The notes beneath the pieces are model-generated. The model did no database searches. It was given only the letters and a program-made list of their open reading frames with translations, and had not been told where the DNA came from. 64,000 nt of DNA from assembly GCA_964016885.1 (NCBI GenBank), contig OZ024755.1, positions 31,868,001-31,932,000 of the forward strand, given 5' to 3'. This document shows, piece after piece, positions 9,188 through 13,641 of this stretch (within the stretch, counting starts at the first letter, position 1; every line of letters begins with the position of its first letter). The DNA is from Eledone cirrhosa. Its lineage: Eukaryota. A program made the translations under genes and the position numbers.

Positions 9188-9273
9188 CTTCAGAATATTG
9201 AAAACAAAGAATTATTTCAATGAACTAGAAAATAATATAAAAGCATATCTACATTCTAGAAATTTATACAAAC

Positions 9274-9375
9274 CTAATCGCCGTGGTCGCCATCCTTTTA
9301 CTGTACGTCCTCTTTCAACATCAACAAGTACTCTGCGTCCATCAATCTTTCTACCATCAGCATGTTTGTAAGCAG
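9274..9375 (-). CDS. SNRNP70: U1 snRNP 70 kDa, coding exon 7 (RRM C-terminal part)
   Basis: [33 protein letters not shown], nearly identical to metazoan U1-70K; CAG acceptor, GTTTGT donor. Confidence 0.97.
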
Positions 9376-9946
9376 CTGGTGAAAAATGAATGAATTGATT
9401 ATTATTATTAATGACAACAACAATATCCTAGCACTCAAGTAGCTAGGTGTGTAAAAATTCATGCAAAATGAGATGGTGGTAAATATTTACAGCTTCTGTT
9501 ATAGTCTGTATCCAGCAATTGGGCATAGTCAATAGCCAAACCAGATCAATGCAACACAATAGGAGGGGGAGGTGCAGCAGAATAATTAATACAAGAAGAA
9601 ACACTGCTAGAACCATTGGGTAAGCTCGCTAAAAGTTTCACAAATGTAGCTTCATGAAATATTAAGAGCTTTTCAGGAAACCAATGTAAAACTACAAATA
9701 GTGACTATTAAAACTGTTTGAGGCTCATCATTAATCTAAAAAAAGAAAAGCATTTTAAAAAAAAAATACAATATACCATCAACAGCTGTTGACAGGTATA
9801 GATCTAACAGGGAACTAAAAAAAAAAACAAAAACAAAAAAAAAAAACCTACTAAGATACATTTGATATAAAAATATAAATTTTTCCGTTGCAGTGCCAAG
9901 ATCATATACTATATCTTAGAAGCTGTAAAATTTATTCTAAGAAAAC

Positions 9947-12900
9947 ATACTTACCTATGTGCATAAACAAATTTATTTCTAACACAAAACAGATGAAGTC
10001 TAGAAAGCACGAGAAAAGTCTACAATCAAGAAACAAAATTCTGTCATGAAGTAGTGGAGGAGGAATAATCAAACACTGGTAGAGAAAGAAATGACAGAGC
10101 TAGGATTTAAAATGAGACCAGACAATTTCTCAAAAAGACCAAGAATGAAAAACCAAACAATTATCCTTCATGACATTCGAACAATATGAACTAAATCCAG
10201 AAATGAATTTATTAAGATACTACAAAAAGATTCAAAATTAACTGATAGGACCTTGACGAAAATACCGAAGACTAAAGAATGAAAGAAAATACCGAAGATT
10301 ACGGAATGAAAGAAAATGGATAAAAATAAAGTTAAATATGTGAAAACTATGAGTGACAAGACAAATTATGCCATTAAAAAATATAAAATGACAAGAAAAG
10401 GAAGCATACAGCATGAAAGGCCTGATTACTTACCTTCTGTATGCATATTTAACATTTAGAAATGAAAATAACTACATGCACTGATTTACAAGATAATTTA
10501 CAGTAATTATAAAAAGTTTTTCACTTACGGCACTAAAATATGTGATAGAAGAGGGTCCCTTCCCTAAATGCTTTGAGAGATTTGCAATGGTGACTCATCG
10601 TGCATAAATGGCCATTTCTGCAGTCTACTTCCATTATCCATAGTTTGAGAACTTACCTGACTTACCTGGAAGCTACCATAAAAACGAACATCTACATTTA
10701 TTCACAACACACAAACCACATTTTGGTAAGTAGGCATTACAATCCATAAAATTTGGTTCCAATTACCTTATTTCAAACCCAGTTAGAAATACTAAATATA
10801 TATATATTAAAAAAAAAATTCCCAAAGCCCATTCTCAAAATTGTTCTTATATGAACTATTCAGATCTTCACATTCATACCAGCTTTGCAGAACACGTTTC
10901 AGATGCTCCCTTTTTTTATGGTGCTTCAGATTAATCAGAACAGTTTTTAAACTAGCTACAAAATATCATGAAATTACCTGTCTAATTTCATCTAAGATCT
11001 CAGTTACTAGTCATATTTATGTACTTTCTAAATTAGGTATTTGCTCTCAGATTCTATGAAATCTAATGAAAAAGTTTCAGTTGAAGTTTTTAAATCCTGA
11101 ACTGGATTGTTCAGTTTCTTTTTTTACAGCAATCGCAATAAAAAATATTTTTAAAACTTTAGTCGTTATAGAAGCTATCGTAAAAAAGTTACGGAAATTT
11201 GAAATCCTTTTCAAATACAGAATATGCAACGCATAATAAGCTCTACAAAATCTCATGTAGAAAAGCTATTTTAATTTGTGAAGTGTAATTATTTTTATTC
11301 ATTAAATTATTAAAATCCCTCATTTAATTATTAAAACCCATCTTAGATAGACTTAGATATACAACCTATTTCTAAGCTTTTTTTTGTCTTACCTCTTTTG
11401 TATATATGTAGATATATATATATTTTTTTTGGTTTAACCCAAGAGCTTACCCAATATACAAACCTATTAACTGGACACCATATTTTTGATCAAGCAACTT
11501 TGGATTTGTTAGGGCAACATAGTGCGCATGGGCCCACAACGTTCACCATTCTGTAGGAAAAATAATAGAGAAACAGGTTAGCAGGCGGGAAACAAATCGC
11601 TCTGCACCAAACCATGTTACTCGGACTCTAATCTTATTGGAAGCTAGAAGTATCAGTTAATTCAGGTACAAAATAAAAACTTACCTGAACCAAACTGACA
11701 TTGTGAAAGTCTCAGTGCTCACGAAGCTCAATTTTTGAAAAGCTAACAGCAATTGTTTAAAGGCATATGACTTAATATCCCAAAAGAATATTTGACACTG
11801 GATTGATTATAGCAATGTAGAAAACAGTCTACCTAAAGATAAGATAATAAAAGGATGGTTTTTAAAAAATTCCACCAAAAACTTAAAAAGGAGAGAAAAA
11901 AAAAAAATCTGAACTGAATTAATAACCCATCAAAACTAAGAAACATAACATTTGAGTAAGGTTACATACATACACACATATATATATATATATATAAACA
12001 ACACACAGGCATCATCATTATTGACCGTCTAGCAAGGGGTCAGATGAGTGTACACACATATATATATATATATGGGAGGAGTTAAACTAATTTGTACCAA
12101 TATATATTCCCATTAAAAGTTTTACAAGCTACAAATAAATAAGCCTGAACATAGGTTTACTCGTGATTTTTAAGCTGACTTGAAAGCATCACAAACTTCA
12201 CTGATTTTGTAATATCTGAATTTTGAGCATTTATAAAGAAATCTTTGCAACAACTACAAAATCAGATATTTTGTTATCAAACCAAGAAATAGCAGTTTGT
12301 GTTGAGATATTAAAACCAAATTATGACTAACTCTCAAACGGAAAGAATCTGAAAAGAAGAATGTGTAGACTTAATAGATACTGAATTTCCTGCTGTAAAA
12401 CTAAATACAGAACCAATTTATATTAAATTGTAACATTTAAGCCACACATATCAAGAGCTTTTTCACTATTGTTTTAATGAAAACAAGCATATTAATTTTG
12501 TAATTTTCCTTCAACTATATTGTCAGTCTTTAAAATATTACCCAAACTAATCCACTATCCATAGTTTTAAAGGTCATTTCAACTTTGCTCAATGTATATA
12601 TTTGAAATGTAGCAAATGGATCCCTAAAAAAGAACTAATTTATTGCACAGTTTATGTTATGTTCTCTACAAAACTTCAAGCATTCCAGTGTCAAAGTTTA
12701 GAATGAGAAGACGCAGTTTTTTTCCTGATAATACGAGCAAAAAATACTGGGAGAAAAGTCATTTCCAAATTTAATAAATAGCGCTTGTTAACCTGGACAT
12801 TTCACAGGAAAGTTATTTAATAGTAGAAAACTACAACCTAACACAGTGCCAGACAAAAGGAATGTAATGTTGAAATATTTTGCACGTGAACAAAATACAA

Positions 12901-13088
12901 ATATTTCAAAAAATAAATTACCTGCAAACTCAGATTTACCATATATATATACATTTAAACCCTCGAGTCACTGTGGAAAGATTTGACCTTACCTCACAAC
13001 TGTCCTGTCACATTGCAGAAAGATTTGCACCTTACCTCACAAATCACCTGTCACTGCTTTTTTGCTAACGATTGGATTCAATTTACCT
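9947..13088 (-). promoter_or_regulatory. Intronic cluster of consensus 5' splice-site (U1 snRNA-binding) motifs
   Basis: Nine GGTAAG on the sense strand, five of them AGGTAAGT (9949, 10428, 10651, 10660, 11679), plus several AGGTAA variants. Confidence 0.75.
11451..11550 (-). other. Candidate poison (PTC) alternative exon of SNRNP70
   Basis: Branch point CTAAC (11577-11581), pyrimidine tract and CAG (AG at 11551-11552); joining to exon 6 gives T+AA = TAA; candidate donors with GT at 11462-63, 11449-50 and 11391-92. Confidence 0.65.
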
Positions 13089-13559
13089 TCAATACATTAT
13101 AAAATACTTCACTTGTATGCTTTTTTCGTTTTTTTTAAATTTTTGTTTTTTTGTTAGAAAGTGAAGTCAACAGACCATACAGAAGAAAAAAAAGGTTTAG
13201 CACCAGAGATGACAAGTAGTTGAAAGAAAACGATAGTACCAACATTTAAGGTAAGCAAATAGAAATTCGGTTGAGGGTCACAAAATTTGAGTAGGAACAT
13301 ATACTAGCCAGAAATAATACCAACAAAATGTTCTGTTTATGTGATTTTTCCTTTGAAATTGCAATCAATTAACCCTTTATGTACTTAAAAAAAAAAAAAA
13401 ATCAGGTTTATCAAAAGATGAGGATAAACAGAACCACCTATAAAAGTAAAAAAAAAAAAAAAAAAAAAATGCCCTCTATTGTTGAAAAAGAATTAAGTAC
13501 ATAAAGGGCTAATGGCTACAGCTAAGAGAGACAGCATAGGGAAAGTAAGGGTTACTTAC

Positions 13560-13641
13560 AATGCATGTCTCTCTCATGTTCATATTCAATGAAAGCATAT
13601 CCACGCATTTTAACACTTTTGACGTCATTGACCATGCGGAT
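13560..13641 (-). CDS. SNRNP70: U1 snRNP 70 kDa, coding exon 6 (RNP1)
   Basis: IRMVNDVKSVKMRGYAFIEYEHERDMH with the RNP1 octamer RGYAFIEY; TAG acceptor, GTAAGT donor. Confidence 0.97.

Follow-up and report, generated by a model that had tools for sequence, protein, structure and literature searches.

The closest described relative of the element reported here is the exon 7a switch of vertebrate SNRNP70, the gene encoding U1-70K. In human, intact U1 small nuclear ribonucleoprotein (snRNP) on hidden donors activates an intronic acceptor; splicing of the remaining intron is mostly left undone, and decay of the RNA follows. The weak donor sites A and B carry a dependence on U1C that the strong site C does not. 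U1C-dependent use of the acceptor, binding of U1 to the donors and decay of the product were shown by others in human, mouse and zebrafish, and the study tests and claims conservation for vertebrates only (Rosel-Hillgartner et al. 2013, PMC3798272). Here we describe a 4184-nt intron in the U1-70K gene of Eledone cirrhosa, located in a stretch of 64,000 nucleotides that was analyzed as a whole (the window). The intron is likely to hold a homologue of the vertebrate exon-7a element, together with extra strong donor-like sites, and to serve as a feedback switch limiting U1-70K. As judged from sequence, the switch probably predates the divergence of molluscs, arthropods and vertebrates and has been retained from then on, which would make it no invention of molluscs.

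Three further systems invite comparison. Decoy exons, as described in the accessible part of Parra et al. 2020 (PMC7373989), are hidden exons in long introns of splicing-factor genes, as is the candidate exon of the window, and have rarely spliced donors; those described, including the one in SNRNP70 intron 7, are conserved from fish to mammals, and blocking the SNRNP70 decoy donor in human lowered retention from ~35% to ~9%. The ultraconserved pseudo-5' splice sites of ENOX1/Enox (Ding et al. 2026, PMC13100119, available files) likewise consist of a short intronic U1-binding motif common to vertebrates and protostomes, but there one strong site silences an upstream coding exon; in the text-searchable files of that paper SNRNP70 is not named among the eight ultraconserved sites and has a single entry in the list of vertebrate-conserved ones. 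In the feedback on U11-48K and U11/U12-65K, an snRNP on tandem non-spliced donors activates an upstream acceptor and limits its own protein (available parts of PMC3798272 and PMC5473595). The same three traits are proposed here for the window, although those two cases belong to the minor spliceosome and involve other genes and another motif. Literature searches, with most subscription papers and bioRxiv supplements beyond their reach, found the U1-70K switch for vertebrates only and no invertebrate account, and the main text of PMC10735318 mentions neither SNRNP70 nor U1-70K. The mechanism is known; the conservation seen here is unexpectedly deep. A retained-intron isoform of U1-70K is known from plants.

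The host gene and the identity of the intron

The U1-70K gene of the window lies on the minus strand, and its ten coding exons are found between ~29747 and 7203. The N-terminal family PF12220 was matched above its cut-off, and this was the one match in the whole genome, which identifies the host gene as the U1-70K orthologue and agrees with the name SNRNP70 given to it in the initial annotation. The protein is 85% identical to bivalve U1-70K over 192 columns, and a quick tree places it among molluscs (support 90).

The intron cuts the codon that follows ERDMH, in phase 1. Human exon 7 primers stop at the same codon, and the named vertebrate isoforms P0109, P0113 and P0094 diverge from the family sequence at this very point. 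It thus corresponds to intron 7 of human SNRNP70, lying at the same exon 7/8 boundary and in the same phase, as had been proposed for it from the outset. Reading on from the sixth exon into the intron yields Cys-Lys-stop.

A candidate poison exon and its donor pair

In the middle part of the intron a predicted alternative acceptor, at 11551, is followed by two donors which correspond to human sites B and C (Table 1). The human sites, AGG/GTTTGT and TGG/GTAAGA (a slash marks the exon-intron junction), lie 13 nt apart (mutation primers and Figure S2A of PMC3798272). Window and human sequences are equal at 17 of 19 bases, with an identical spacing of 13 nt, and among 1.13 million background positions there were zero matches of at least 16 to the human 19-base stretch. 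For a looser pattern, AGGTTTGTAT-N(1-12)-GGTAAG, the genome has 14 occurrences, a number equal to that of its reversed control, so that the motif alone is not special; its location is. A genome-unique pattern built from the B-C match itself was discarded, as it is not independent evidence. Over 11 bases, site B is identical to the real donor of the seventh exon (at 9273), which argues that this weak site is usable as a donor in this gene.

When scored with a simple matrix trained on 61 acceptors, acceptor 11551 ranked at the 99.7th percentile of genome AGs, as compared to the 98.95th for the true acceptor of the intron. Joining of the upstream exon to 11550, a junction predicted from the sequence, would bring in TAA as the first codon. 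Human exon 7a has a length of 60/72 nt (PMC7373989, available part), and its counterpart in the fish-like locus L110, which matches zebrafish exon 7a, one of 108/121 nt; the candidate exon of the window falls within this vertebrate range.

The window thus shares with the vertebrate switch (PMC3798272, available text) the gene, the intron position and the phase, a predicted acceptor with a premature stop, a weak GTTTGT site B and a GTAAG site C 13 nt further on. It differs in lacking a clear site A, in having the stop as the first codon, in the position of the acceptor (+2009, versus +642) and in the number of donor-like sites, which is at least 13 in the window intron while four, A-D, are named in the vertebrate switch. 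The initial annotation had connected the intron to this switch without noticing the poison acceptor or sites B and C; with these elements conserved, the connection is stronger than was claimed.

Excess of donor-like sites

The nine GGTAAG, five AGGTAAGT and three CAGGTAAGT reported for the minus strand of the 4184-nt intron were all recovered, the former at exactly the plus-strand CTTACC positions listed, and so were the three GGTAAG and zero AGGTAAGT of the opposite strand. As a chance baseline we used 40 random 10-kb stretches of the same genome, on both strands (800 kb). The counts expected from it are 0.55 GGTAAG, 0.13 AGGTAAG (8 seen), 0.047 AGGTAAGT and 0.02 CAGGTAAGT, in line with the earlier rough estimate of ~0.6 GGTAAG and <0.1 of the longer motif; the corresponding Poisson p values are 8e-9 for GGTAAG, 2e-12 for AGGTAAG and 2e-9 for AGGTAAGT. 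The observed counts were reached by none of 240 random 4.18-kb segments (maxima of 6 GGTAAG and 2 AGGTAAG) and by none of the Markov simulations of orders 1-3 (1000 each), and on the sense strand of WD40 genes (20 regions, 164 kb, true donors included) the best segment of each held at most 3 GGTAAG. Two of the site pairs are local duplications; with each pair counted once, p is still ~1e-5 to 1e-6.

[quoted passage not shown] By this measure the intron has 13 sites with at least 7/9 matches and 7 with at least 8/9; no site of at least 8/9 is present in the gene's eight other introns (17 kb). The site at 9947 does pair at 10/11 positions, as previously stated, when 9947-9957 is compared to the complement of the genome's own U1 5' end. 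Of the eight real donors that were scored, at least seven pair less strongly with U1 than do five of the sites downstream of the putative exon 7a, in agreement with the view that several are stronger than the gene's real donors. The intron's own donor, ATT/GTAAGT, was not in the list of real donors given earlier. The description of the intron as nearly transposon-free was also correct: dispersed repeats cover 1.1% of it, as against 9-72% of five other introns, coverage being judged against a 493-kb genome sample only. The motif excess is far beyond that of random DNA, of gene-internal sense strand and of the gene's other introns.

Relative to the B-C pair, the GGTAAG of the intron are split into 5 downstream and 3 upstream. 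Sites 10665 and 10656 form a tandem CAGGTAAGT pair, and sites 13035 and 12992 sit in a 43-nt local duplication. The perfect CAG/GTAAGT at 11679..11687, ahead of which 11881 and 11832 are candidate acceptors, could be the end of a second hidden exon or the start of a short nested intron. In its own right, the minus-strand segment 11551-11684, with a perfect donor, a branch-like motif and a strong acceptor, has the outline of a textbook 134-nt nested intron.

Table 1. Features of the U1-70K intron of Eledone cirrhosa and its flanking exons, in window coordinates
Feature	Coordinates	Strand	Description
Sixth coding exon of U1-70K	13560..13641	-	Ends with ERDMH plus one base, phase 1; equals human exon 7; from translation and gene model
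4184-nt intron	9376..13559	-	Equals human SNRNP70 intron 7; donor ATT/GTAAGT (6/9 U1 matches)
Upstream group of five donor-like sites	12916..13089	-	GT at 13086, 13047, 13035, 12992, 12921
Perfect CAG/GTAAGT	11679..11687	-	134 nt upstream of the candidate poison acceptor; from sequence
Predicted alternative (poison) acceptor	11551..11581	-	Branch-like CTAAC at 11581, 14/17 pyrimidines, TACAG ending at 11551
Putative exon-7a homologue	11451..11550	-	Length 87 nt if ended by donor B and 100 nt if ended by donor C
Donor pair B and C	11446..11466	-	Weak B, TAG/GTTTGT, GT at 11463; C, TGG/GTAAGC, GT at 11450; spacing 13 nt
Strong donor-like sites downstream of the putative exon 7a	9947..11395	-	GT at 11392, 10977, 10766, 10665, 10656, 10433, 9954; 7-9/9 U1 matches
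Seventh coding exon (AYKHADG...RRLG)	9274..9375	-	Equals human exon 8

Orthologous introns in other animals

Orthologous introns were retrieved from metagenome contigs, chosen by exon sequence only. The 59 loci obtained consist of 3 spliced mRNAs, 32 incomplete introns and 24 complete ones, and removal of 4 near-duplicates left 20 complete introns. Groups recognized among the loci in a tree are hydrozoans, a sister clade of these, Daphnia, springtails, insects and a crustacean-like clade, with L081, L111 and L114 unplaced. The hydrozoan-sister clade (L091, coral-like) is probably anthozoan, a label given only by its sister position in a quick tree; a protein search for this clade yielded no named cnidarian among the 120 matches listed.

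Over the 20 complete introns, GGTRAG occurs 118 times in the sense direction and 7 times in antisense, as compared to 14.2 in dinucleotide shuffles. Tested one by one (200 shuffles each), 16 of the 20 introns are enriched at p≤0.05 and 13 at p≤0.01. The density of GGTRAG is 3.5 per kb in the orthologous introns, as compared to 0.61 per kb over the remainder of these loci, and the hydrozoan-placed L127 carries 18 sites in 1757 nt. These data do not agree with the notion, put forward in the initial annotation, of an expanded mollusc-specific form: arrays are present in arthropod-like and cnidarian-like introns, and the density in the window is 2.2 per kb, below the median of 3.9 and exceeded in 13 of the 20 orthologous introns. 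The part of this notion that stands is that the window has the most near-perfect sites (at least 8/9), with 7, versus at most 4 in the other introns.

The B-C pair is found in 11 of the 20 complete introns, in 0 of 20 on the antisense strand, and also in partial loci including the fish-like L110. Several of the 11 pair-bearing introns are close kin, and about four lineages are therefore represented. The pair was not found in cnidarian-like, sponge-like and springtail-like introns, nor in L099, L123 and L129. In the other species with the pair, extra donors are concentrated downstream of it (35 in 13.1 kb, versus 3 in 4.9 kb upstream), and the intron part upstream of site B is not enriched in donors. 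L099 (993-1241, match orientation) is a compact gene in which the intron is just 248 nt long, with four GGTRAG in its first quarter.

Signs of use in other species

All signs of use come from species other than Eledone cirrhosa. The Daphnia-like protein P0003, which is 90% identical to Daphnia U1-70K, runs from ERDMH into the sequence behind the internal acceptor of L098 and L112; judging by the translation, its tail would correspond to an RNA in which B and C were passed unspliced, as is the pattern in human. In the coral-like L088 and L118 the upstream intron is absent and the orthologous intron present, while L104, of the same species, has the upstream intron. Similarly, L112 has the orthologous intron but lacks flanking introns, which are present in the related L133 and L134. 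Among 58 short homologues, 27 break at the first exon, which is probably due to genomic read-through; of the remaining 31, 15 break at the orthologous intron, four named vertebrates and one bivalve-like protein being among them, as compared to 2-5 at each other boundary.

Two sets of sequences show related peculiarities. Proteins P0027, P0068, P0100 and P0086 (sponge-like, beetle-like and rotifer-like) end a few residues past ERDMH with tails unlike the start of a retained intron, which suggests alternative acceptor use in those groups too; no convincing source was found in the loci for the tails AITLAA and FRAAGN (P0027, P0068, P0100). In the springtail-like L116 (~2270-2290, match orientation) the upstream exons are joined and the downstream exon is reached without an AG, possibly by internal-donor splicing or through misassembly.

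Proposed mechanism and alternative explanations

In the proposed mechanism, an ample supply of U1 snRNP would lead to exon definition by U1 on B and C, and acceptor 11551 would be joined to the upstream exon. The competing donors downstream would hold the rest of the intron unspliced, and the resulting RNA would be degraded or would not leave the nucleus. A shortage of U1 or U1C would leave the weak site B unoccupied, so that the whole intron would be removed and more U1-70K would be made. Site B would probably act as the reader of U1C content, while the strong array would probably add a response to the total U1 level by keeping the downstream half unspliced. It appears doubtful that the near-perfect sites are the sensor, because U1C dependence in human sits in the weak sites A and B, and the weak B is conserved here.

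A more detailed version, which we put forward tentatively and with slightly less than even confidence, distinguishes two layers: a U1-counting strong array that would predate the cnidarian-bilaterian split and turn over freely, and a fixed weak-plus-strong, U1C-reading pair that would have been added in the bilaterian ancestor and remained near unchanged in molluscs, arthropods and vertebrates. If this is true, the B-C pair is one of very few intronic elements with a sequence conserved across bilaterians.

Several observations weigh against a conserved exon-7a-type switch. Human site A, which lies 12 nt before B (PMC3798272, available text), has no clear counterpart in the window, where just a weak ATG/GTGTCC is found 15 nt before B; site A is present in the fish-like L110, and none is clear in the invertebrate loci. 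With the simple matrix, acceptor 11551 ranks fourth in the intron, as three other AGs score higher. Three GGTAAG lie upstream of the acceptor, a region in which other species carry few. Among the orthologous introns, 4 of the 20 complete ones are without enrichment and 9 lack the B-C pair; of 18 partial introns of at least 900 nt, 11 carry 0-2 sites, and the partial intron of the bivalve-like L101 has zero GGTRAG in its first 1515 nt. The loci yielded no further mollusc intron carrying the element. As to the signs of use, nascent RNA can give rise to contigs that look unspliced, and gene calls on genomic or intron-poor DNA can give rise to truncated proteins.

Four other explanations of the donor-like sites were considered, all of which appear less likely than the exon-7a-type switch. 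Protection of nascent RNA by U1 is established, and the array could bind U1 and thereby prevent premature cleavage and polyadenylation within the intron (telescripting), the more so as six AATAAA occur in the intron, several of them near strong donors (10702, 9977, 9936). The AATAAA density of 1.4 per kb is, however, inside the range of 1.3-2.1 of other long introns, which have no array. The acceptor and the weak B site would be left unexplained, and low U1 would then be expected to reduce U1-70K, which is not homeostatic; we consider this explanation very improbable. We are no more inclined to accept stepwise (recursive or nested) splicing, in which AG/GT sites would aid piecewise removal of the intron. 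Site 10665 combines an acceptor-like AG (99.5th percentile) with a perfect donor, AG/GT is found at 11832 too, and 11684-11551 resembles a 134-nt intron; nevertheless, the 7.1-kb and 4.8-kb introns of the same gene are without such sites, and arrays are carried by orthologous introns whose length, 0.25-1.8 kb, makes stepwise removal unnecessary. An origin by chance, by local duplication or as a decayed relic with no present function would agree with the two duplicated site pairs and with the wide differences in site number and strength between lineages. It is scarcely credible, and the least probable of the four, given that p remains at ~1e-5 or lower with the duplicates collapsed, that introns selected on their exon sequence alone show the same bias in different phyla, and that the intron is nearly without dispersed repeats.

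An unlikely explanation, though not to the same degree, is retention by decoys alone, in which the hidden exon and its donors engage the true ends of the intron but are not themselves spliced, and nuclear retention of the whole intron is tuned by the state of the cell or by other factors and not by U1 or U1C. It would fit the drop in retention caused by blocking the human decoy donor (PMC7373989, available part), the loci L112, L127 and L084 as cases of whole-intron retention, the proteins that read C/G-K into the intron (bivalve-like P0001), and the arrays without a B-C pair in cnidarian-like and springtail-like introns. Against it, the acceptor is truly used in human (PMC3798272, available text) and in the Daphnia-like product, and what is conserved is the weak site, the one that depends on U1C. 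The two modes are compatible with each other.

Implications

Self-regulation of U1 snRNP has so far been tested in vertebrates; an exon-7a-type switch in this intron would add molluscs, arthropods and probably cnidarians, and would provide a rare intronic motif for which human and protostome sequences can be aligned. The variants that occur in nature, with pair plus array, with the array alone or with the pair almost alone, form a series for examining what weak and strong decoy donors sense. There is also a warning for annotation: truncated U1-70K gene models that end after ERDMH probably reflect the regulated intron.

Additional features of the intron and of the U1 genes

An Rfam scan of 7000-30000 gave 14 matches (E up to 1), all below cut-off, so that no family was assigned; the sub-threshold matches inside the intron are on TA repeats. 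Two parts of the intron, searched against the same genome, had just short, chance-like matches elsewhere. Among sequencing runs, four of unstated kind contained 0.90-0.99 of the query words and 20 contained small shares, none being listed as RNA, an outcome that speaks neither for nor against use of the sites. A small hairpin at the real donor (13545-13559, minus strand), which pairs with CTTAC ten bases downstream, is absent from 27 other loci, and the accessibility of the real donor is not unusual among the donors of this gene. The best-scoring acceptor-like AG of the intron, 13437, is enclosed by a near-perfect stem of 21 bp (13368-13513, minus strand; folding z-score -5.6), which may hide this AG or serve as an editing substrate; 26 orthologous introns had no stem of that length within their first 400 nt. 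The U1 snRNA genes form long tandem arrays with a period of ~2.67 kb, at G000:C2:180973544-180995099 and on C1128; 42 matches were scored.

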